A program made the position numbers and the translations under genes. The notes under the pieces were generated by a model that was given only the letters and a program-made list of their open reading frames with translations, did not search any database and was not told the DNA's origin. From IMG/VR virus record IMGVR_UViG_2531839481_000004, positions 1 to 34,202 of that record: a DNA stretch of 34,202 nucleotides; one strand, 5' to 3'. This DNA is from a virus. Taxonomy: Duplodnaviria; Heunggongvirae; Uroviricota; Caudoviricetes. Below, piece by piece: positions 1-34,202 of the stretch; the stretch's first letter is position 1; the number at the start of each line of letters is the position of its first letter.

Positions 1-1
1 A

Positions 2-19
2 AACCTGCCGTAGCAGGTT
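2..19 (-). terminator. possible ogr terminator hairpin, truncated by window edge
   Basis: inverted repeat aacctgc-cgta-gcaggtt immediately downstream of ogr stop; the T-tract would fall at or beyond position 1. Confidence 0.25.
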
Positions 20-26
20 CTCTTTC

Positions 27-245
27 TCAAAAATTCATATGCCCCTGACCACCTGGCAATGGATGTGGAGGAGCAGTAGCAATCAGTGCGGGTGTCACAA
101 TAAACCGGACCACTGTTTCATGGGTAACAAAAGTGCTCCCGCAGTTAATATTTTGGCACTGGCAGTAACGCTCTTTGGTGCTTTCAGTTACTTGAAAACT
201 GCTCCTTGTGTGTGCCGCATGACCACACTTTGGACAATTCATCAT
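27..245 (-). CDS. ogr: late-gene transcription activator, Ogr/B-type zinc finger (72 aa)
   Basis: MMNCPKCGHAAH...CQCQNINC...PHPLPGGQ matches the C4 zinc-finger pattern and length of P2 Ogr/186 B; ATG at 243-245 with SD; the track ORF 27-404 is a 5'-extended version. Confidence 0.85.
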   Translation of the reverse strand: MMNCPKCGHAAHTRSSFQVTESTKERYCQCQNINCGSTFVTHETVVRFIVTPALIATAPPHPLPGGQGHMNF

Positions 246-273
246 ATCCAGATCCCTACCTTTGCTATCAGAA

Positions 274-2589
274 TCATTGTAATGCTTCACTGACGGGACC
301 TGCCGCCGCTTTGAATCCTTCCACCACGCCACCAAGAAATGCGGTGATGGGTTGCCAGTATTTCCAGACAACCAGCGCCACGCCCGCCAGTGCAGTAACC
401 ACAAGACCTATCGGACTGAGCAGAGCACCTAACAGACCAGATACGGCATACAGGGCAACGCGCAGCATCGCCAGCGGACCGGATGCCAGCACACGAAGCA
501 CCACGCCTGCGGCAGCCAGTCCACCGCGCAGTACCGCCAGAGGATTCATAAACATCACAGCAACAGCACGTAAACCGGATAATCCAGACCGCAATAGTGC
601 AACCGGCGCACCTGCTACAGTTTTCAGGACATTCCCCGTCAGTGATGCCGTGCGACGCAAAGACGACAACGGCGCAGTAAGTAAACCCGCTGCGTTGCCC
701 GATGAAGCAAGCCCGCGTCGCAGCAGTGCCAGTGGTGCGCCAGCCAGCCAGGACAACGCGCTGCTGGTTCGGGTTACTGCTGCCGTAACGGAAGGTAACG
801 TTTTGATATCCAGCACAGAGAATCCCAGACGGATGACTGCCAGCGGCCCCAGCACTGCAGCCAGCGCCACCGCTAAGGTGCCGAGGCCTACGGTAACCGC
901 AGCCACAACAGCCGCTACTTTCATCAGTGTGCCTGTCAGTTCCGGGTTAGCTTCCACCCAGCGGCGCAACGCTCCCGTGATGCTTTTCACCGTGTACAGA
1001 ATATCCATCAGCGGCTGGCGCAGCGTTTCGCCCAGGCTGCTGAAGGTGTTCTGCGCTCCGGTTTTGACCAGCAACCACTGAGCAGAAAGTGAGTCTTTGT
1101 TGATGTCAGATTCTTTCTGCATGGAACCGAGCGCATCATTGCCCGCTGTCAGTTTTAGCTGGCGCTGCAGTTCCGGAAGGTTGTTTGCCAGTTTCGCCGC
1201 GTCATCACCAAACTCTTTACCAAACAACATGGTCATGGCAGACAGACGCTTGTCCTGCGGCAGTGCGTTCACCTTCTCCAGCACACGCTGGATAGTTCCC
1301 ATCGCATCCTTCGTCATCTGCTTTTCAATCACTTCAGGATTGAGTTTCAGCAGATTCATCCCTTCAAAGAAACTCTTGCTTTGCATGGTGGCAATGGACA
1401 ATTCACGCACCATCGCGTTTGCTGCACTGGCTGCAACCTCCGGCGCAGCGCCCAGTGTCAGAAAGGTGGAACCCAGTGCCGCCGCTTTACGATAATCCAG
1501 GCGGTCAGCTACACCGCCCAGACGTTGCATCACATCAATGATGTCCGCCCCTTTCGACATGGCGTTATCATCCAGATAGTTCAGCGCATCGCCGAGCTGT
1601 TCAATATTGCGGGTAGGTATTTTGTAGAGCTGGGCGATTTTCCCCAGACTTTCTGACAGTTCATCCGCTGGCAGCTCAAAGGCTGTTGCCGCCTTTGCTG
1701 CCGTACTGGCGAAGGCCAGCAGGTCACGTTTCTGGTCTTCCCAGCTGTCGTCAGGGTTTGCGACGTTCATGCGCGCACCTCCTTCAACCAGTGCAGCGAA
1801 GTCCACCGCACCGTTTTCCATCGGCAACTGTTCGCTGGCAGCCTTGATGGCATCCTGCATTTCATAAAAACGTGCAGTGCGGTTGCCATTATCGTCACGC
1901 AGACCATTGACCTGCTTTGCCACACCTTTCATGGCATCTTCCATGCTGGTATAGCTTTTTACTGCCGCCATCACTGGCGCACCCATTGCCAGCCCTGCAG
2001 CCGTGGTAGTGGCTCCGGCTCCTGCGATGCGATCGCGCACTTCAAGCCGTCTTGAGTATTGTTCTCTGGCAGCGTTCATCCGTGCCTGTTGTTCACCCAG
2101 ACGTTTAAGTGCTTTTTGCTGGCCCTCCAGTGCCTGCCTTGTTTCTTCAGCATTTTTCTTAAGTTCTCGCTGGGCACTACTGAGTTGTCTGGTATCAATC
2201 CCTGATTCTTTAAGTGCCTGACGTTGTCTCTGGACCGCCCCCAACAAGCCGTTATAGGTCTGCTGAAGTTCCTGTACTCGTGTTTTGGCCTGACTGAATA
2301 ACTTTGCCTGCGCGGCGGTTGGCCTGTTAGTGGCAGCAAATTGTGTGGCGAGTTTTGCCGCCTCTTCGCGGGCTGCGTTCAGGTTGTTGGCTGTTATGGC
2401 TAGTTGCGAGCGCGTCTTGCGAAATTCATCAATTCTGCCAGCCTGCTTATTCAGTTCTTTGAGGCTGTTTCGGGTATTCTGAATTGCGCCAGCCAGCTCT
2501 TTCGAACTGGCCTGTGCAGCACGGAATGGGCGGGTGAGTTTGTCAACCGCATTAAGAATGACCTGCAGGCGCAGGTTGTTATCACTCAT
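274..2589 (-). CDS. tail tape measure protein (gpT-like), possibly C-terminally truncated
   Basis: 771 aa, coiled-coil-rich N-terminal half, Gly/Ala/Leu-rich hydrophobic repeats in C-terminal third; start ATG overlaps the E' stop (gATGAgtga) as in P2. Confidence 0.8.
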   Translation of the reverse strand: MSDNNLRLQVILNAVDKLTRPFRAAQASSKELAGAIQNTRNSLKELNKQAGRIDEFRKTRSQLAITANNLNAAREEAAKLATQFAATNRPTAAQAKLFSQAKTRVQELQQTYNGLLGAVQRQRQALKESGIDTRQLSSAQRELKKNAEETRQALEGQQKALKRLGEQQARMNAAREQYSRRLEVRDRIAGAGATTTAAGLAMGAPVMAAVKSYTSMEDAMKGVAKQVNGLRDDNGNRTARFYEMQDAIKAASEQLPMENGAVDFAALVEGGARMNVANPDDSWEDQKRDLLAFASTAAKAATAFELPADELSESLGKIAQLYKIPTRNIEQLGDALNYLDDNAMSKGADIIDVMQRLGGVADRLDYRKAAALGSTFLTLGAAPEVAASAANAMVRELSIATMQSKSFFEGMNLLKLNPEVIEKQMTKDAMGTIQRVLEKVNALPQDKRLSAMTMLFGKEFGDDAAKLANNLPELQRQLKLTAGNDALGSMQKESDINKDSLSAQWLLVKTGAQNTFSSLGETLRQPLMDILYTVKSITGALRRWVEANPELTGTLMKVAAVVAAVTVGLGTLAVALAAVLGPLAVIRLGFSVLDIKTLPSVTAAVTRTSSALSWLAGAPLALLRRGLASSGNAAGLLTAPLSSLRRTASLTGNVLKTVAGAPVALLRSGLSGLRAVAVMFMNPLAVLRGGLAAAGVVLRVLASGPLAMLRVALYAVSGLLGALLSPIGLVVTALAGVALVVWKYWQPITAFLGGVVEGFKAAAGPVSEALQ

Positions 2590-19770: not shown

Positions 19771-21435
19771 CTATAAATTGAATTTATGCATTCTTAACTC
19801 ATTCAATTTACTCTCTCTAGAAATCTTCATTAAAGCAGCCTTAGCTTTTATAGAAACAGATCTCGTTTTCTCATTTACATTACCAATACGACTAAATTTC
19901 AGACAAGTAGCAACGTGGGATGTTAAATGATTCCCATGCAAACTTTTAAAATAATGATAATAATCATCTTCAGTAGCGCTACTTAATACTTCTATATCAT
20001 CATCATTCCAGCCATTTTTTCCACTGAGCGCATCCAACACCTCACCTAAAGTGCGCTTGGGTGAATCAGTTAGATACACACCTTTAAATTTCTCAATGAT
20101 TTCTGCATCTTTGATTGGTCTAAAAAGATAAAAATTATCCAGATCAAATAACTCTATTTCACTTCGTCTTTCTTGAATATAATACGTAATCATCTCAGAT
20201 GCCTTTGTATCTTCTCCTAGTTCACGGAAGACCCCAACAAGGCTATCAAGATCATTAGGAGATACTTGAGTTACACAATCCATAAAGCACTTATAAAAAT
20301 GAGAAACAACTTCTTCTACATTATCATCAAAACTATTATGAAATAAATCCCATGCACTTCTAAATGAGTTTGACTTTTTATTTTCTAAAGCCTGTTTATT
20401 TATAATTTTTATTGCCTCATTAAACTCTGTCATATCTATATAACCATTCCTGACTAGCTTTGCTATTTTCCTATCCAGCTCATCAACCCTTGTAAAATTA
20501 TAGCTCAGTAAAATATCCTTCCATTTTTTTTCTTCTTCTGTTACATCCTTTTTGCCTATTGAGTAAATACTTTCCATAGATTCGAGGAAATCCAAAGAGG
20601 GAACATCCTTATCTGATTTAGAGCAATAATAGGCCCAATTCATTAATACAACCGTATGCAAAAATTGCATTTTAACTTCACTTTCGCACTCTTCAAAAGC
20701 TCGCCATGCATTTTCTACGTTTCGCTCTATTTTCTTTAAAACTCTAATATTTTTGATGCCTAACGAAATAGTATATTGTGCTAACGGCTTATGAAAATCC
20801 TTACTATTATCATATGCTATCTGTGCAGATTCACTGGGCGTAGGTGAAAAATGCAACTCAATGTCAATTACTTTTTCTTTAAACTTTTCATAATCAGCAA
20901 CTTCTTTAGTACCATCATTGAGTAAAAGTATAACCTTACATTTCTTTTGTTCTTTTAACAAAGAAATAAGACCTAATACATCTTTAAGTTCTAATGACGA
21001 TCCTTTACGCTCTAAATCATCTATGCAAATTAATGAATCTGACACAGACATAAATGACCATGCTTCTATTGCAGGAGCGGCAGACTTTATATACGGCAGC
21101 TCTTTCAATTTACTCCACGAACCTCGCCCCAATATTTCAAGCATACCTAATGTATTTTTTCTTAAACTATCTAGACTTGGCTCATGTCCTATGGAGTCTT
21201 TTGAAACTGCATTTTCAAAAATGGAATATTTTAATCTATCTAACGAAGATATACCGAAAAGAGAGACATAGGAATAATGCGAAGCAGAAATCATATTTTG
21301 ACACTTTGCTTCCAGAAGAAACTTATTCCAACTAAATGTCTTACCAACTCCCCACTCTCCTTTAATTGCCATAACCGAAGGGGCTGATTTAGAAACAAAG
21401 TTTAGAATTTGTTCTCGTACCAAGCTTAGCGACAT
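19771..21435 (-). CDS. KAP-type P-loop NTPase (554 aa), accessory cargo gene
   Basis: Walker A GEWGVGKT (aa 26-33, nt ~21337-21360), Walker B-like LICIDDLER, no obvious TM helices, AT-rich, ATG with AAGGAG SD. Confidence 0.7.
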   Translation of the reverse strand: MSLSLVREQILNFVSKSAPSVMAIKGEWGVGKTFSWNKFLLEAKCQNMISASHYSYVSLFGISSLDRLKYSIFENAVSKDSIGHEPSLDSLRKNTLGMLEILGRGSWSKLKELPYIKSAAPAIEAWSFMSVSDSLICIDDLERKGSSLELKDVLGLISLLKEQKKCKVILLLNDGTKEVADYEKFKEKVIDIELHFSPTPSESAQIAYDNSKDFHKPLAQYTISLGIKNIRVLKKIERNVENAWRAFEECESEVKMQFLHTVVLMNWAYYCSKSDKDVPSLDFLESMESIYSIGKKDVTEEEKKWKDILLSYNFTRVDELDRKIAKLVRNGYIDMTEFNEAIKIINKQALENKKSNSFRSAWDLFHNSFDDNVEEVVSHFYKCFMDCVTQVSPNDLDSLVGVFRELGEDTKASEMITYYIQERRSEIELFDLDNFYLFRPIKDAEIIEKFKGVYLTDSPKRTLGEVLDALSGKNGWNDDDIEVLSSATEDDYYHYFKSLHGNHLTSHVATCLKFSRIGNVNEKTRSVSIKAKAALMKISRESKLNELRMHKFNL

Positions 21436-21528
21436 AACTCACTCCTTGATTGCGAATGTTAATTATATATTTTACCAAAAATCTTAATCACCACCTATAG
21501 AAAGGTGAAAGATGGGTGCTGGCGCGCG

Positions 21529-21547
21529 CTCGTATCCCCGCCACGCC
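21529..21547 (-). other. candidate cos cohesive-end sequence
   Basis: minus strand GGCGTGGCGGGGATACGAG followed by CGCGCGC; first 13 nt identical to the remembered 186 cohesive end, orientation relative to Q as in P2. Confidence 0.45.
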
Positions 21548-21569
21548 TGCCCGCTTTATGTAGTGGTTT

Positions 21570-21672
21570 TCATGCACCTGCATGTTCTACGTAAAAGCCC
21601 GCTAGTTCTGGCGAGCCTTAGCAAAAACGATCCTTAAACGATCATGCGATTTCATGCAGCATAGTCATGCAC
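21570..21672. repeat. cluster of four TCATGC(A) motifs including the palindrome CATGCACCTGCATG
   Basis: copies at ~21570, 21642, 21652 and 21665; palindrome at 21571-21584. Confidence 0.3.
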
Positions 21673-21869
21673 TGTCTAAGAGAAGTGAAAGTCCGTATCT
21701 GAATGACCACTTGAGAAACGAAACATACAGACTTACAAAGATGAAGCTCTACTGTGAGCGAGGAACATACATAGTTGCTCTGTAATAGCCAAATTTTAAG
21801 CAGGAAATCTCTTTTTTATGACAAAACTATAAAGAAAAACAGACCGTTTCATCGCTCGATGAAAATATA

Positions 21870-23447
21870 CTACAATACTTTTCTCTCGATGGTATTTTTA
21901 ATGGTCAACATATCTTTAGGAATACTTTTTTTCCCCTCTATACGTATGGTAAACACAAAAAGAATAACGGCTGATCTCACAATTTTCATGAGTTGTAAGA
22001 GCTGTTTCTCAAACTTTTCTTTCTCAATAAACCTCACCTCATCAAAAAATCCATAAGAATTATATAAATCAACTAACATGTCTTTCTCGTGAATAACTAA
22101 CAGTTTATGTTCTAAATCATTCCTCCATTCTTTAAAAAAAGCAAGCTCACCATTTTTATCATTCAAATCCATAGCAATACTAAACAAACCCAGCAATCCT
22201 TTATTATTTATTTTGTTTATTTTAAGCTTTCTTTTTTCATCACTAATCCGCCAGAAGTTATGAAAGTATATATGTCCTCTATCTGGTTTTAAATCAAATA
22301 ATTGACACAGAGCAACTGCTATTTTATCCAAGATACCAAAGCAAGCTCTAAATGCAACCCTTAACTTCTCAACATTTTCATACAATATTTCTCCATTATA
22401 CAATTCAGAATAACATACCTCCGAATCCTCATCAAAAAACTCACTATCAACCTTATATTCAAAAAACATTTTTCGTGCTAAGGAATACTCAGCTTTAAGT
22501 CTATTTAACACCATTTCCATTGGCACTATAAAATCACCAAACACACCTTCCTCGGTGGTCGCAATAGTTATATTATCTTTAGATGACGCATAACAATTGC
22601 AATATAGCGAATGATCAGACAACATTAGATTATTATCTATACAAAACCTCTGGTAGTTTGATAAAGTATCATACTCCTCCTGCGTGAGCCTTTCATCTGT
22701 ACTTATATCCTCTATGCCATATACACATGATTCACTCAATATACTTTCGTTGTACTTTATTTTTCTTTGAAGAGCAACCTTCCATGAAGGAAAACATTTC
22801 CCTGACTTTATTGCACACTCATAACCTCGAATAACTTCTTTAATCATTTTATATGTATATGTTGTAGATAATTCATTAAGCAATTCTAATGCCTCAGATC
22901 TGTTTACCCACGCCTGAGGAATTGAGTTATCAATAGATATTGCTTGTTCATAATAATCCATTGATTCAGACATACGATATTGTTTTTTTAATACATTAGC
23001 TAGATTAACTATTAAATCAGGGGGCACCCATCCATCTTCTTGTGAAAGTTTAAACGCTTTCCAGTAATTATTTTTTACATCATTCAGCTTAATGAAACTA
23101 TCAATATCTGCATTGTCATTAGGATTAAAATCAAGAACTGCGCTCATTCCATTTGCCAAGTTATAGTAATATAAGGATTCTTTCATTATAGTCAGAAATT
23201 CATTTTTATTGTTTATAAAGATATTTAAGCCTTCCTCCGCTATATTTTTTACATTACTAAAATTTCCGATATCAATAAGATTTCCGGCCAAATTAGATAA
23301 TATAATTATTCTATTTTCTTTGATTGTATTTATCTCATCGATACCGTTAAGAATATCCTTTACATTTTTATAGGCAGAATCAAATGAACCTGCATTAATA
23401 AGATCATCTACGACCCCCATTTTTGAAACAACATAGTTGATATCCAT
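21870..23447 (-). CDS. 525-aa protein with helical-repeat N-terminal region and C-terminal HEPN-like domain (Rx4H motif WRNDLEHK), accessory cargo gene
   Basis: ATG with AGAGGA SD; strongly AT-rich; R442-x4-H447 motif (nt ~22107-22124); occupies the tin/old position between cos and A. Confidence 0.65.
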   Translation of the reverse strand: MDINYVVSKMGVVDDLINAGSFDSAYKNVKDILNGIDEINTIKENRIIILSNLAGNLIDIGNFSNVKNIAEEGLNIFINNKNEFLTIMKESLYYYNLANGMSAVLDFNPNDNADIDSFIKLNDVKNNYWKAFKLSQEDGWVPPDLIVNLANVLKKQYRMSESMDYYEQAISIDNSIPQAWVNRSEALELLNELSTTYTYKMIKEVIRGYECAIKSGKCFPSWKVALQRKIKYNESILSESCVYGIEDISTDERLTQEEYDTLSNYQRFCIDNNLMLSDHSLYCNCYASSKDNITIATTEEGVFGDFIVPMEMVLNRLKAEYSLARKMFFEYKVDSEFFDEDSEVCYSELYNGEILYENVEKLRVAFRACFGILDKIAVALCQLFDLKPDRGHIYFHNFWRISDEKRKLKINKINNKGLLGLFSIAMDLNDKNGELAFFKEWRNDLEHKLLVIHEKDMLVDLYNSYGFFDEVRFIEKEKFEKQLLQLMKIVRSAVILFVFTIRIEGKKSIPKDMLTIKNTIERKVL

Positions 23448-23688
23448 TCAATCCTCTTTAAACTAAGCTAATAATACCAATCATTATATGGATGAGATCA
23501 ATATAGAACATGCCATCTCCGGCAAAAATCGTACTACATCAGACCAGTGCCCTTCAAATAATATAAATTGAACTTAGATACTTCTGCTTCAACCAGTGTG
23601 TTAAATCCATCGCTTGAACTCAGAACAAAAAGCGGACGATCACTTATCAAAATGGCCGTCCACCTAACGCCTCGTTTCACTCGTTGCC

Positions 23689-23725
23689 CAAAATAGTCCC
23701 CCATCAGAATGAATCCTCTTGGGGG
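23689..23725 (-). terminator. possible terminator after the DinI-like gene
   Basis: ccccc-N18-ggggg hairpin followed on the minus strand by actattttg. Confidence 0.3.
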
Positions 23726-23734
23726 CAACGTTTC

Positions 23735-23968
23735 TTAATGCAGCCAGCTGTCGTCTTCCCACACCTTCTGCATAATTTTCATCACTTGCTTCCTTTCTTC
23801 GTCCAGTTGCAGTCCGGTTAGTTCCACACCGTTAGAGCTACCTTTGCGAATGCGAATTACCGTTTTGGGATACAGGGGGCGCAGATTGCGGTAAAGCTCG
23901 GATTCAAGGGCGTCCAGGGTAGACTGGCTAATCTTCTGCTCTTTATCGATCATTATTTCAATGCGCAT
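23735..23968 (-). CDS. DinI-like protein (77 aa)
   Basis: MRIEIMIDK...LDALESEL...QKVWEDDSW resembles E. coli DinI; ATG with GAGGTGA SD. Confidence 0.75.
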   Translation of the reverse strand: MRIEIMIDKEQKISQSTLDALESELYRNLRPLYPKTVIRIRKGSSNGVELTGLQLDEERKQVMKIMQKVWEDDSWLH

Positions 23969-23978
23969 AAAAGTCACC

Positions 23979-24167
23979 TCAGCTGATGACATCCATTGAG
24001 CGGTTGTATTCGTGGGTTCTGATTTTTGCCATGAGTTCATCTGTTAGTTCAGAAACCCACTGCAAAGCCAGCCCCTTCTCTTCATCACTACACTCACTAG
24101 CCGCTACAAGCTTAAGAAAAAAATCAATGCGCTGGAGCTTCAAAGACTCCAAAAAATAGTCCTGCAT
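23979..24167 (-). CDS. small protein (62 aa) under a LexA box, tum-like SOS module
   Basis: ATG with AGGAGG SD 5 nt upstream; LexA box 44-59 bp upstream. Confidence 0.5.
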   Translation of the reverse strand: MQDYFLESLKLQRIDFFLKLVAASECSDEEKGLALQWVSELTDELMAKIRTHEYNRSMDVIS

Positions 24168-30081: not shown

Positions 30082-30714
30082 ATGTTAAACATCAGAATGG
30101 GTTCCGATACGGGAGGTAAGGCAGCTATTGAGAGGCTGCTTGAGGCTTATGGATTCACAACTAAGCAGGCATTAAGCGAGCACCTGAATGTCTCAAAAAG
30201 TACTATGGCAAACAGAGTGTTACGTGACAGTTTTCCTGCTGACTGGATAATTCAGTGTGCACTAGAAACCGGTGTTTCGTTACTTTGGTTAGCCACTGGA
30301 CAGGGAAGCATGAAAGAAGGATACGAGCCTGAGAAAAGATCTCATAACGAGAACAAACAAGCAATTAAACCGTTATCCAAACTCATAACTCCATCTATTC
30401 CTAAAGGAACCTTGGAAAATGGACAACTCAGTATTGATGAAGAGATTTTCCTAGACCACAGCATATTACCTGCAGATTATGAAGAATCGATGTTCTTAGA
30501 AACCCCTACTGATTGTTATCTCATCGATAAATCAGTTAAACAAGTCAGCAATGGATTCTGGCTTATCAATATTGATGGAATGATTATTATTGCAAAAATC
30601 ATGCGGATTCCCGGCAATAAGATTGTAGTAAATCAAGATGAAGCGTCTTTCGAGTGCTCTGCTGATGATGTGGAAGTTATTGGGCGTGCAGTCAAAGTAA
30701 TAAAGAGTATCTAA
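30082..30714 (+). CDS. cI: 186-type CI immunity repressor
   Basis: 210 aa, N-terminal HTH, followed directly by int; GGAGA SD. Confidence 0.8.
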   Translation: MLNIRMGSDTGGKAAIERLLEAYGFTTKQALSEHLNVSKSTMANRVLRDSFPADWIIQCALETGVSLLWLATGQGSMKEGYEPEKRSHNENKQAIKPLSKLITPSIPKGTLENGQLSIDEEIFLDHSILPADYEESMFLETPTDCYLIDKSVKQVSNGFWLINIDGMIIIAKIMRIPGNKIVVNQDEASFECSADDVEVIGRAVKVIKSI

Positions 30715-30716
30715 AC

Positions 30717-31733
30717 ATGACTGTCAGAAAACAGCCAAACGGTAAATGGTTGTGCGAGTGCTATCCCAATGGACGCAATGGCAAGCGCGTGCGTAAGCAA
30801 TTTGCTACGAAAGGCGAAGCCATTGCTTTTGAAAGCTTCACAATGGAAGAAGTGAACAAAAAACCATGGCTGGGGGAAAAGGAAGATCGGCGACACCTAT
30901 CAGAATTAATTGAGCAGTGGTATTCCCTGTATGGTCAAACACTCGCAGACCCCAAGCGCCTCATAGCGAAACTTAGAATTATCTGTAATGGTCTAGGCGA
31001 TCCCATCGCTTCAGAACTGACAGCCGGTGACTTTACGAAATACCGCGAAGCACGGTTAAAAGGTGAAGTACGAAATGAAGATGGCACGTTTATGTCGCCC
31101 GTTAAGCCCCGCACGGTAAACCTTGAACAGCGCAATCTATCATCTGTTTTTGGTACACTGAAAAAGCTGGGCCACTGGTCAGCCCCCAACCCGCTTGCTG
31201 GGCTGCCAACATTTAAAATTGCTGAGAGTGAATTGGCGTTCCTGACCCCGGAAGAAATTAAACGTCTGCTGGATGCCTGCGCCGATTCTCAAAGCTCCAG
31301 CCTGCTTTTGATTGCAAAAATATGCCTGGCCACCGGCGCACGCTGGAGCGAAGCCGAAAACCTGCAGAGTCATCAGGTATCAAAATACCGTATCACTTAT
31401 ACCAAGACCAAAGGCAAGAAAAACCGAACTGTGCCTATTTCTAAGGATTTATATGAAGAACTGCCTAAGAATAGGGGGAAGTTATTCACCCCATGCAGAA
31501 AAGCCTTTGAGCGTGCAGTAAAGCGGGCTGGTATCGATCTGCCAGAGGGTCAATGTACTCACGTTCTGCGTCATACATTCGCTAGCCATTTTATGATGAA
31601 TGGTGGAAACATATTGGTTTTGCGGGATATCCTAGGACATTCAGATATAAAAATGACCATGGTCTATGCACACTTCGCCCCAGACCATTTAGAAGATGCC
31701 GTAACTAAAAATCCTTTATTTAATTTGAGGTAA
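30717..31733 (+). CDS. int: tyrosine integrase
   Basis: 338 aa, C-terminal HVLRHTFASHF...LGHSDIKMTMVYAH catalytic region (R..HxxR..Y). Confidence 0.9.
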   Translation: MTVRKQPNGKWLCECYPNGRNGKRVRKQFATKGEAIAFESFTMEEVNKKPWLGEKEDRRHLSELIEQWYSLYGQTLADPKRLIAKLRIICNGLGDPIASELTAGDFTKYREARLKGEVRNEDGTFMSPVKPRTVNLEQRNLSSVFGTLKKLGHWSAPNPLAGLPTFKIAESELAFLTPEEIKRLLDACADSQSSSLLLIAKICLATGARWSEAENLQSHQVSKYRITYTKTKGKKNRTVPISKDLYEELPKNRGKLFTPCRKAFERAVKRAGIDLPEGQCTHVLRHTFASHFMMNGGNILVLRDILGHSDIKMTMVYAHFAPDHLEDAVTKNPLFNLR

Positions 31734-31743
31734 GTAGTAATTT

Positions 31744-32412
31744 ATGAATAGCGAACTAGAGTTACTTATAAAAATATTATTCTCTTCCCTATCTGCCATT
31801 ATATCCTTATTAGGGCTTAAAACAGGGTGGACTTATAAAAAAGACAAACTATTCACATCACGTAAAAACATTAGCGAATTTTCATATCAGATGTATAAAA
31901 GCAGTGAAGATCCGACCTTCAAAAAACTGGCGGAAGATTACGGCATTGCTGCATTAACCAAAGATAACACATTGACAAAAAAACAAAGATTAATATTACT
32001 CAACACAACAAACCCCGTTAGCGATATAGATGATTATTCCAAATGTCAAAGTCTAATTTCCATTACCACCCATAAAGAAATATTCGCATGGAATAAAAAA
32101 AGATATAAATACAGCATATATAGAAAATTAATAAAAATTATAACAACTCTAATTTACTTCATGGGCAGTCTCATCGTAGCACTTCCTTTCAGTTATTCTG
32201 TTGTAGTAAGTGCTAAGATGATGGAGAAGATAAACCATCTAACTACTTGGCAATACTTTGGTTTAAGCAGCTATTTTGTGGTATCGGGAGTAGCAATATG
32301 CTTTATCTGCCTAGATAAGCTCTCCAAGATTAAGATCGCCGAGAGATTAATCGTTTCAAATAGGCGTTTAGGCGACAAATGCAGTGGCGTCACTTTGGCG
32401 GCAGAAAGTTAA
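31744..32412 (+). CDS. AT-rich membrane protein (222 aa), lysogeny-expressed cargo gene
   Basis: ATG 10 bp after int stop with GAGG SD; three hydrophobic helices; lies between int and attR. Confidence 0.6.
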   Translation: MNSELELLIKILFSSLSAIISLLGLKTGWTYKKDKLFTSRKNISEFSYQMYKSSEDPTFKKLAEDYGIAALTKDNTLTKKQRLILLNTTNPVSDIDDYSKCQSLISITTHKEIFAWNKKRYKYSIYRKLIKIITTLIYFMGSLIVALPFSYSVVVSAKMMEKINHLTTWQYFGLSSYFVVSGVAICFICLDKLSKIKIAERLIVSNRRLGDKCSGVTLAAES

Positions 32413-32497
32413 AAACCCATAAAACGGACAGACACCGCATAAATCTAACCAACTGAAAATCAAAGCAAATCATTGTTTTTACAGACATTGAAATGCT

Positions 32498-32542
32498 ATG
32501 TAGGAATTTCGGACGCGGGTTCAACTCCCGCCAGCTCCACCA
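32498..32542 (+). other. ssrA: attR core: duplicated 3' end of tmRNA (ssrA)
   Basis: ATGTAGGAATTTCGGACGCGGGTTCAACTCCCGCCAGCTCCACCA matches the 3' terminus of E. coli ssrA; upstream sequence does not match ssrA. Confidence 0.8.
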
Positions 32543-32671
32543 ATCATGATTGGACGGTGTAAGGACTACACCAACAAAAACAGGAAGTTATAAGTCTCAG
32601 CAGGACACCGACCAGACGGTGAGGAGACAAAAAAGGATACGCAACGGAGTCGCGACTCCCTATGACATTAA

Positions 32672-32696
32672 AGCCCGCTGATGCGGGCTTTTTTAT
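32672..32696 (+). terminator. rho-independent terminator
   Basis: gcccgc-tgat-gcgggc hairpin followed by a T-tract. Confidence 0.5.
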
Positions 32697-33125
32697 TGGT
32701 CCTGACCCGCCCTGAATAGAATTCATCCAATTACAGTCCAGACATATACAGTATCCCTCAGCTCAGTATCAGCTTCTCGACAAATGGTCACTGTTATTTA
32801 CCCGTTGCCAGAAAGAGAATAATTTGCCCCCATAGCCAGCCTTCCCGGAATCTGTATATTCATTAATATTGTTATCGATTCCATCAAGTAACATAGGTTG
32901 GATGCGATTGATCTTACTCACATTAGTCGACACGGAACTCAGTAAGTTGAACTCTGAAAAAGCAGTTTAAATAGCATTTAAACAAATGCCACCAGTTCGA
33001 AAAAGAGTATAAGCACACTTAATATATTGTTTTAATTATTCATTTCCTTTCAACCCAATTCTTATCCCTCACATTATTTGTTATTAATTTGTTGTTTTTG
33101 ATCACAATAAGAAAACAATATGTAA

Positions 33126-34202
<1,077 letters not shown>

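Follow-up and report, generated by a model that had tools for sequence, protein, structure and literature searches.

An AT-rich gene for a three-helix membrane protein in the int-attP cargo slot of a Fels-2/186-type prophage, a candidate single-gene phage defence

The interval between the integrase gene int and the attachment site (att) was reported as a minor defence hotspot of P2-like phages (NAR 2026, PMC13586616), and a preprint of 2024 described the interval as a 'third hotspot' of these phages, between a tail protein and CI (bioRxiv 10.1101/2024.10.15.618418). P2 itself has no gene between int and attP. The record of phage 186 annotates a lysogenic operon, pL-cI-int-orf69, with a terminator beyond attP, and the 83-aa protein Orf69 is encoded inside this operon between int and attP. 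Small phage-encoded inner-membrane proteins that are made in the lysogen or early in infection, and for which a single gene suffices, are exemplified by P22 SieA, T4 Imm and HK97 gp15. Here, an open reading frame (ORF) for a 222-aa membrane protein behind the int gene of a P2-like prophage is described. It is located on a 34,202-nt stretch of DNA, IMG/VR record IMGVR_UViG_2531839481_000004, which was analysed as a whole and is called the window. Three features define the gene and its slot:

31744..32412, + strand: 222-aa ORF, RefSeq WP_001518837.1 'hypothetical protein', an uncharacterised inner-membrane protein with three transmembrane (TM) segments, family phrog_21256 (ORF listing, searches, AlphaFold2 (AF2) model)
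31728..32382, no strand: variable cargo cassette (blastn against 18 related loci, alignment)
31727..31731, + strand: GAGGT, the sole motif resembling a Shine-Dalgarno (SD) sequence, formed by the last int codons and the stop codon, 12-13 nt before the ATG (read from the sequence)

The ORF was found to be a real, constrained and horizontally mobile gene, encoding an accessory membrane protein in a recognised cargo hotspot. As stated in an initial annotation of the window, which was made from the sequence alone, it follows int directly. The int stop codon TAA occupies 31731-31733 and the ATG starts at 31744, leaving a gap of exactly 10 nt. A spurious ORF was ruled out by the conservation of the family, by non-synonymous differences (pN) far below synonymous differences (pS) in every comparison and by the chance of 222 stop-free codons, which is about 3e-8 at the base composition of the ORF (A 37%, T 28%). 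The GC content was 34.2%, below that of cI (40.0%), int (46.4%) and the window (50%). The initial annotation had described the ORF as far more AT-rich than both cI and int, which held for int and was overstated for cI. It had also assigned an SD sequence of its own to the gene, which was not borne out: the only candidate is the GAGGT within the int end, and its distance to the ATG is at the long end of functional SD spacing. Its statement that nothing comparable is present in P2 or 186 was correct for P2 and wrong for 186, where Orf69 holds exactly that position. Although constrained, the gene was much more divergent than the neighbouring int. In the same phage pairs, the non-synonymous divergence (dN) was 0.23-0.51 for the ORF and 0.04-0.10 for int, which is 5-12 times faster. 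A literature search with the RefSeq accession of the protein found no paper.

The gene was established as accessory cargo (a moron) of the P2-like int-attP hotspot that was acquired horizontally. It is flanked by int and the att core within the phage, its occupancy is variable and its composition is unlike that of the 50% GC prophage. Similarity to prophages with different cargo stopped at about 31715-31727 and returned at 32383-32385 in blastn comparisons with the 18 related loci. The ORF was present in 29 of 5426 complete Escherichia coli genomes, where all copies were full-length, at least 98.8% identical and annotated as hypothetical. A related int was present in 199 complete E. coli genomes, and 29 of these carried the ORF. 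The slot was surveyed in 11 E. coli prophages whose int is related (83-96% nt identity) but which lack the ORF. Ten of them held other cargo and one slot, that of strain 702/18, was empty. Cargo consisted of hypothetical proteins of 309, 343, 352 (twice), 363, 403 (with a 300-aa neighbour), 407 and 418 aa, while in two strains the slot was filled by an anti-phage dCTP deaminase on the opposite strand (PADLOC 1e-145). Altogether, at least eight other unrelated proteins occupy the slot across the sampled E. coli loci. The GC content of slot cargo was 30-35% in all measured cases, and, relative to the int stop, the start of co-oriented cargo was between -4 and +14 nt in all cases but L007 (+106). 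The moron assignment of the initial annotation, between int and attR, was thus upheld, and comparison of the int-att intervals ruled out a core gene of all related phages. Sequenced virion genomes with a gene in the slot were RE-2010 (gp01), SopEPhi (orfY) and Cartapus (gp33); in Fels-2, int ends about 150 nt before the end of the record, leaving no space for cargo.

DNA and protein searches of phage and plasmid collections returned no match to the ORF, and its known occurrences are limited to prophages, in genomes and in IMG/VR. In IMG/VR, 22 loci carried relatives at 46-99% identity, nearly all directly 3' of int in 186/Fels-2-type prophages with differing cI immunity types. Homologues over this range of identity retained the length, the three TM segments and the motifs. 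In a few loci, the homologue was located beyond the att of the resident prophage, after about 40 nt of int 3' end or next to degenerate int fragments (L036, L038 and L044 from IMG/VR; L022, a Buttiauxella metagenome-assembled genome). These homologues look like cargo that outlived an older prophage. A related observation was made in E. coli E47 (L010 4018-4397), where similarity to the window downstream of int includes roughly the first 50 nt of the ORF-family gene and is followed by a reverse-strand dCTP deaminase gene. This piece looks like what remained after deletion of the membrane-protein gene from a two-gene slot of the kind seen in Siccibacter. Variable genes were also observed across att from int, between ssrA/attL and ogr: one of 714 nt in CEA212U (L054 4920-5633) and one of 483 nt in BE2-5 (L009 751-1233) and in Cartapus, where gp32 is annotated as 'putative exonuclease' (L014 5020-5502). 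Cargo therefore flanks attP on both sides.

The predicted layout of the protein comprises an outside N-terminus, TM1, a basic cytoplasmic domain of about 100 aa, a TM2-TM3 hairpin and a cytoplasmic tail. The segments are encoded as follows:

31756..31824, + strand: TM1 (aa 5-27), with the N-terminus predicted periplasmic (hydropathy; AF2 helix 3-27)
31825..32124, + strand: basic cytoplasmic domain (aa 28-127), where conservation within the family is highest (alignments, AF2 secondary structure, charge count)
32125..32331, + strand: TM2 (aa 128-157), short periplasmic loop (aa 158-169) and TM3 (aa 170-196) (hydropathy, alignment, AF2)

Kyte-Doolittle hydropathy identified three hydrophobic segments at about aa 5-27, 128-157 and 170-196, and the AF2 model showed long helices at 3-27, 124-154 and 168-205. 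The model built on an alignment of 21 sequences was usable, with a predicted local distance difference test score (pLDDT) of 78 and a predicted template modelling score (pTM) of 0.70, while the single-sequence model was of no use (pLDDT 50). Residues 28-130, which connect helices 1 and 2, contain 20 K/R and 11 D/E, and residues 110-132 contain 8 K/R and 1 D/E. According to the positive-inside rule, this basic segment was therefore placed in the cytoplasm. Hydropathy and charge bias were consistent with the alignment-based model, which agrees with the three hydrophobic helices and the basic cytoplasmic segment of the initial annotation. TM1 does not resemble a Sec signal peptide because a basic n-region is absent. 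The soluble domain is modelled as four helices followed by a beta hairpin and may be winged-helix-like. Residues Y138 and P148 in the TM2-TM3 region are nearly invariant across the family.

An exhaustive HMMER search retrieved 55 cluster representatives (clusters at 50% identity) at E<=1e-3, most of them 200-230 aa long. In the second and third profile searches of a large protein database, few new members were among the matches listed, and hydrophobic look-alikes were common. The common architecture consists of TM1, the basic domain, TM2, a short loop, TM3 and a tail with A-E-x-L-I. Two motifs characterise the basic domain, E-x-G-[YI]-A-A-L-T-x-D-x-x-L-x3-Q-R-x2-L-L and F-x-W-x-K-x-R-Y-x4-Y-R. 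All 37 aligned members matched phrog_21256, to which PHROGs assigns no function, and by these profiles the family is coherent and uncharacterised. Pfam, PHROGs and NCBIfam searches with the ORF protein and the 37 members gave nothing of note beyond phrog_21256; no PHROG with an annotated function was matched at E<=0.01, except for an O-acetyltransferase match in one of the 37 members. PADLOC v2 returned only noise (E 0.007 and 0.019, 13-14 bits), and none of its known or candidate defence models recognised the protein. The sequence-profile search of the PDB retrieved designed helical proteins only (E>=0.02). The fold search with the AF2 model found no significant match, including to known defence, exclusion or abortive-infection proteins. 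The remote homology searches thus gave the protein a coherent family and no link to the exclusion, abortive-infection or conversion proteins suggested in the initial annotation: across Pfam, PHROGs, PADLOC v2, NCBIfam, the PDB and the fold search, no sequence or fold similarity to known defence, exclusion, abortive-infection or conversion proteins was detected.

The neighbourhoods of distant homologues were in part related to defence. About eight of 13 distinct contexts were prophage hotspots, satellites or defence islands and four were housekeeping, in a small sample that has no background statistic. In Siccibacter, the homologue occupies the same int-att slot and is followed by a dCTP deaminase gene, also inside the att site. 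In Kosakonia, it is located in the classical GpA-portal hotspot of a P2-like prophage. On a metagenomic contig, it is flanked by a Lamassu operon and by genes for H-NS and a TIR protein. Further homologues follow an AAA+DUF2357 pair (McrBC-like) on an integrase-island contig and adjoin a DACNV protein and AlpA on another contig. In a satellite-like element with integrase and Prim-Pol (L048), the homologue adjoins a reverse transcriptase and its start is overlapped by an upstream Xre gene. On metagenome contig L017, it is divergent from a BrxR/WYL regulator. Genes for proteins of 519, 275 and 1723 aa follow this homologue (L017 7021-16193), which have no Pfam or PADLOC match, and the gene set may be an undescribed multi-gene defence operon. 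The housekeeping contexts were those of Klebsiella quasipneumoniae, Orbaceae and two others. In K. quasipneumoniae, the gene has a fixed chromosomal locus among metabolic genes and is represented by hundreds of member sequences. The GC content of the family gene was below that of its flanks in most of ten loci checked, stand-alone cases included, with little or no difference in three.

A putative anti-phage role was deduced by guilt by association, from the hotspots and from the defence-island neighbours of homologues. The association is supported by the dCTP deaminase in the allelic slot and by homologues in P2 hotspot, Lamassu/TIR, BrxR, AAA+DUF2357 and reverse-transcriptase contexts. The balance leans slightly towards a protein that is anti-phage in some way. 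The favoured form, a self-contained membrane effector similar to those of abortive infection (Abi), was given a probability of roughly 35%. According to this proposal, the lysogen would produce small amounts of the protein from a cI-int transcript that has the ORF as its final cistron and stops at the host ssrA terminator, and the protein would act alone as a single-gene anti-phage membrane protein. Once its conserved cytoplasmic domain had sensed a sign of infection, its membrane helices would assemble into oligomers and impair the inner membrane or the membrane potential. Three reasons led to a preference for Abi-type action over entry exclusion: nearly all conserved positions are on the cytoplasmic side, family members are also found outside prophages, and each of two homologues has a tight regulator upstream. 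Tentatively, the family could represent undescribed single-gene anti-phage membrane proteins that combine a three-helix topology like that of TolQ/ExbB with a winged-helix-like basic domain and act by an uncatalogued mechanism. For example, phage DNA or protein might be sensed at the inner face of the inner membrane and the membrane potential collapsed. The family would move between two P2 hotspots, satellites and chromosomal defence islands across Proteobacteria.

Several points weigh against an Abi-like effector. Family libraries, PDB profile search and fold search gave no match to a known defence, exclusion or abortive-infection protein. Four of about 13 distinct contexts are housekeeping, including the fixed K. 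quasipneumoniae locus, and guilt by association is a weak guide for single genes in hotspots of mixed function. Expression in the lysogen may be very low because the SD motif is 12-13 nt off and a gene of 34% GC is open to silencing by H-NS. The most conserved part of the protein is the cytoplasmic domain, which is not expected for a fast-evolving phage sensor.

Four alternatives were weighed against the Abi-like effector. A protein that stops entry of an incoming genome at the inner membrane and leaves the cell alive, in the manner of P22 SieA, T4 Imm and HK97 gp15, would agree with a small predicted inner-membrane protein at the end of the lysogeny operon, and N-terminal TM segments are also present in three other slot cargos. 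The TM segments and the periplasmic loop vary around a conserved cytoplasmic core, which would fit specificity for different injection machineries. However, only about four N-terminal residues and the 12-residue loop are predicted to be periplasmic, and the 37 members match phrog_21256 with the single O-acetyltransferase match as the only functional hit. Homologues that lie outside prophages, within defence islands or at chromosomal loci in distant taxa, would also be unusual for proteins tuned to the relatives of the phage itself, and such superinfection exclusion appears unlikely. A lysogenic-conversion or host-fitness factor that acts in envelope physiology, stress tolerance or sensitivity to bacteriocins or toxins, and leaves phages unaffected, would explain the stable stand-alone chromosomal genes in K. 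quasipneumoniae, with metabolic neighbours, and in Orbaceae, with housekeeping neighbours. Slots of temperate phages adjacent to int and att classically also hold conversion genes, e.g., the gtr operons of P22-like and Sf6-like phages. A Colicin-K-immunity match in one family member (E=0.024) points in the same direction but is below threshold and confined to that member. Since most of the informative contexts are defence hotspots or islands and an enzymatic or transporter domain is absent, this role is regarded as doubtful.

A function for the phage itself would make the protein a regulator or accessory, tethered at the membrane, in integration, excision or the choice between lysis and lysogeny; in one version it would be a membrane-held winged helix. 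The tight coupling to int, the overlap of the ORF 3' end with conserved motifs of the Int arm type and a cytoplasmic domain predicted as helices and a beta hairpin would be consistent with such a function. The fold matches were, however, not significant, and family members occur without any phage. The gene is also dispensable and replaceable: the slots of Fels-2 and 702/18 are empty, and elsewhere unrelated genes accompany the same int and att arm. Given slots that lack cargo or contain unrelated genes, regulation of the phage by this protein is very unlikely. The gene might finally encode a selfish membrane toxin or addiction element with a stabilising effect on the prophage or island, or it might be in decay and have no current function. 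The former would agree with the tight upstream regulators of two homologues, the overlapping Xre gene in L048 and the divergent BrxR gene in L017, but an antitoxin-like partner is absent from the E. coli slot. The defective appearance of the window prophage would suit a toxin or a decaying gene, whereas pN far below pS and 29 of 29 intact copies argue against decay. Both possibilities were considered highly improbable.

The element that carries the gene was identified as a Fels-2/SopEPhi/186-type relative of P2 inserted in the 3' end of ssrA. Pfam searches around the ORF detected a 186-type cI, int, an Apl-like gene and CII (CP76 family). The features relevant to expression and integration are:

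30082..30714, + strand: 186-type cI repressor, which opens the presumed lysogenic operon (Pfam Phage_CI_repr 1.7e-30, Phage_CI_C 7.2e-31)
30717..31733, + strand: tyrosine integrase of Fels-2/SopEPhi/RE-2010 type (Pfam Int_N, Phage_integrase)
32383..32497, no strand: conserved attP arm, common to all related phages (alignment)
32498..32543, + strand: att core of 46 nt, identical (100%) to the 3' end of ssrA (transfer-messenger RNA, tmRNA), attR-side duplicate (match to intact ssrA in related locus L009)
32670..32691, + strand: host ssrA terminator, the first + strand intrinsic terminator after cI-int-ORF, which would end the operon transcript in the lysogen (terminator scan)

The integrase of the window shared 92-95% aa identity with those of Fels-2, RE-2010, SEN8 and Cartapus and 90% with that of SopEPhi. 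No complete tmRNA was detected at the att region by ARAGORN, and Rfam gave only a partial 90-nt match below the gathering score. Together with the 46-nt ssrA match, this identifies the site as the attR-side duplicate of an ssrA-inserted prophage. Downstream, csiD begins at 33225. The interval of 680 nt between attR and csiD (32544-33224) is AT-rich, down to 29% GC, and contains nothing but short ORFs and the ssrA terminator. In other strains, further islands with CP4-57-like integrases or ypjA follow this att junction. A sequence scan found no promoter-like or terminator-like sites between cI, int and the ORF. Co-transcription of the ORF with cI-int as the last cistron in the lysogen, as proposed in the initial annotation, is plausible because of the 10-nt gap, the lack of an intervening promoter or terminator and the precedent of the 186 operon.

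At the start of the attP arm are two copies of an invariant TGGCGnCA motif, spaced 11 bp apart in the alignment (32385-32392 and 32396-32403). According to the record of 186, Int arm sites follow the consensus YAYCGCCAYTY; this includes the complement of TGGCG, and the tandem motifs are probable Int arm-type sites. The last nine codons of the ORF and its stop codon TAA (32410-32412) fall within the conserved arm and run across both motifs. Because its end reads into the arm, the E. coli protein has 14 residues more than its relatives of 207-209 aa. Binding of Int and translation or transcription of the ORF 3' end could interfere with each other.

The prophage carries further cargo in its classical P2 GpA-portal hotspot (19771-24040, - strand). 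It consists of genes for three proteins: a KAP-family P-loop protein of 553 aa, which matches the PADLOC candidate PDC-S49 at 1e-29, one of 524 aa that carries a HEPN_LA2681 domain (1.7e-38) at its C-terminus, and a DinI-like one of 100 aa. With the int-att slot, the window prophage therefore has at least two cargo loci. Window 1-2589 was compared with the closest complete relative (E. coli CEA212U). The tape-measure ORF has 771 aa and lacks about 256 codons at the C-terminal end of the CEA212U gene, and the tail genes U and D are absent. Directly next to the shortened gene is an ogr-like zinc-finger gene (30-245, - strand) with only 75% identity to ogr of CEA212U. The prophage is probably defective or recombinant.

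Since the hotspot and its logic have already been published, the locus is not new in kind, while the protein family is uncharacterised and a fair candidate for a new single-gene defence. If the protein proved to be anti-phage, it would add a compact single-gene membrane system to the defence catalogue and give a function to phrog_21256 and about 55 subfamilies. The little-studied int-attP slot of Fels-2/186-type phages, which in E. coli alone encodes eight or more further AT-rich proteins that lack annotation, would then be worth mining. If it had no anti-phage effect, the stable chromosomal copies in K. quasipneumoniae would point to a role in host physiology. The cassette edges are sharp, one at the stop codon of int and one at the first Int arm-type motif, where the ORF reads into the arm, and they offer a modest but tangible hint of how cargo exchange works at this slot.

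Compared with P22 SieA, T4 Imm and HK97 gp15, the ORF protein showed no sequence or profile similarity, its conserved bulk is predicted to be cytoplasmic and its family also occurs outside prophages. With Abi membrane effectors such as lambda RexB, the 2TM/4TM effectors of retrons and of the cyclic-oligonucleotide-based antiphage signalling system (CBASS) and 1TM-TIR proteins, it shares TM helices combined with a cytoplasmic module, defence neighbourhoods and AT-rich mobile genes. In contrast to these effectors, the E. coli slot has no gene for a partner sensor, the protein has no SLATT or other known effector domain in Pfam and its match to 1TM-TIR is only noise (PADLOC E=0.007, 13.9 bits). 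The predicted topology and the size match those of the MotA/TolQ/ExbB stators, which include ZorA of Zorya, with 230 aa in TolQ and 243 aa in ExbB. The shared TolQ/ExbB layout comprises an outside N-terminus, TM1, a cytoplasmic insert of about 100 aa, a TM2-TM3 hairpin and a cytoplasmic tail. Foldseek matches to ExbB and ZorA were at noise level (E 1.2-1.7), and TIGR02796 (tolQ) was matched at 8e-4 in one member. Membership in this family was rejected, as PF01618 was detected in 0 of 37 members, hhalign probabilities against E. coli TolQ and ExbB were 0.4-0.6% and no TolR/ExbD/MotB/ZorB-type gene is adjacent. The likeness to TolQ/ExbB is a resemblance only.

By position, the closest counterparts are 186 Orf69, SopEPhi orfY, RE-2010 gp01 and Cartapus gp33 ('putative RES protein'), which are co-oriented with int, a few nt from its stop codon and before attP, like the ORF. 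GC content was measured for the genes of SopEPhi, RE-2010 and Cartapus, which are AT-rich like the ORF. The slot proteins themselves are unrelated to the ORF protein: those of about 400 aa are soluble and have no TM segments, and Orf69 is a repeat peptide, to which a relation was rejected at an hhalign probability of 0.2%. Orf69 (L050 1158-1409) is an odd small protein with about eight tandem LAPDGTYVGG-like repeats and no function in the record. As in the int-att hotspot cargo described for P2-like prophages (PMC13586616; bioRxiv 10.1101/2024.10.15.618418), occupancy is variable here and a dCTP deaminase is found in allelic position. Those studies counted systems recognised by DefenseFinder or PADLOC, whereas the ORF protein is recognised neither by PADLOC v2 nor by the family libraries and would therefore belong to their unclassified cargo.

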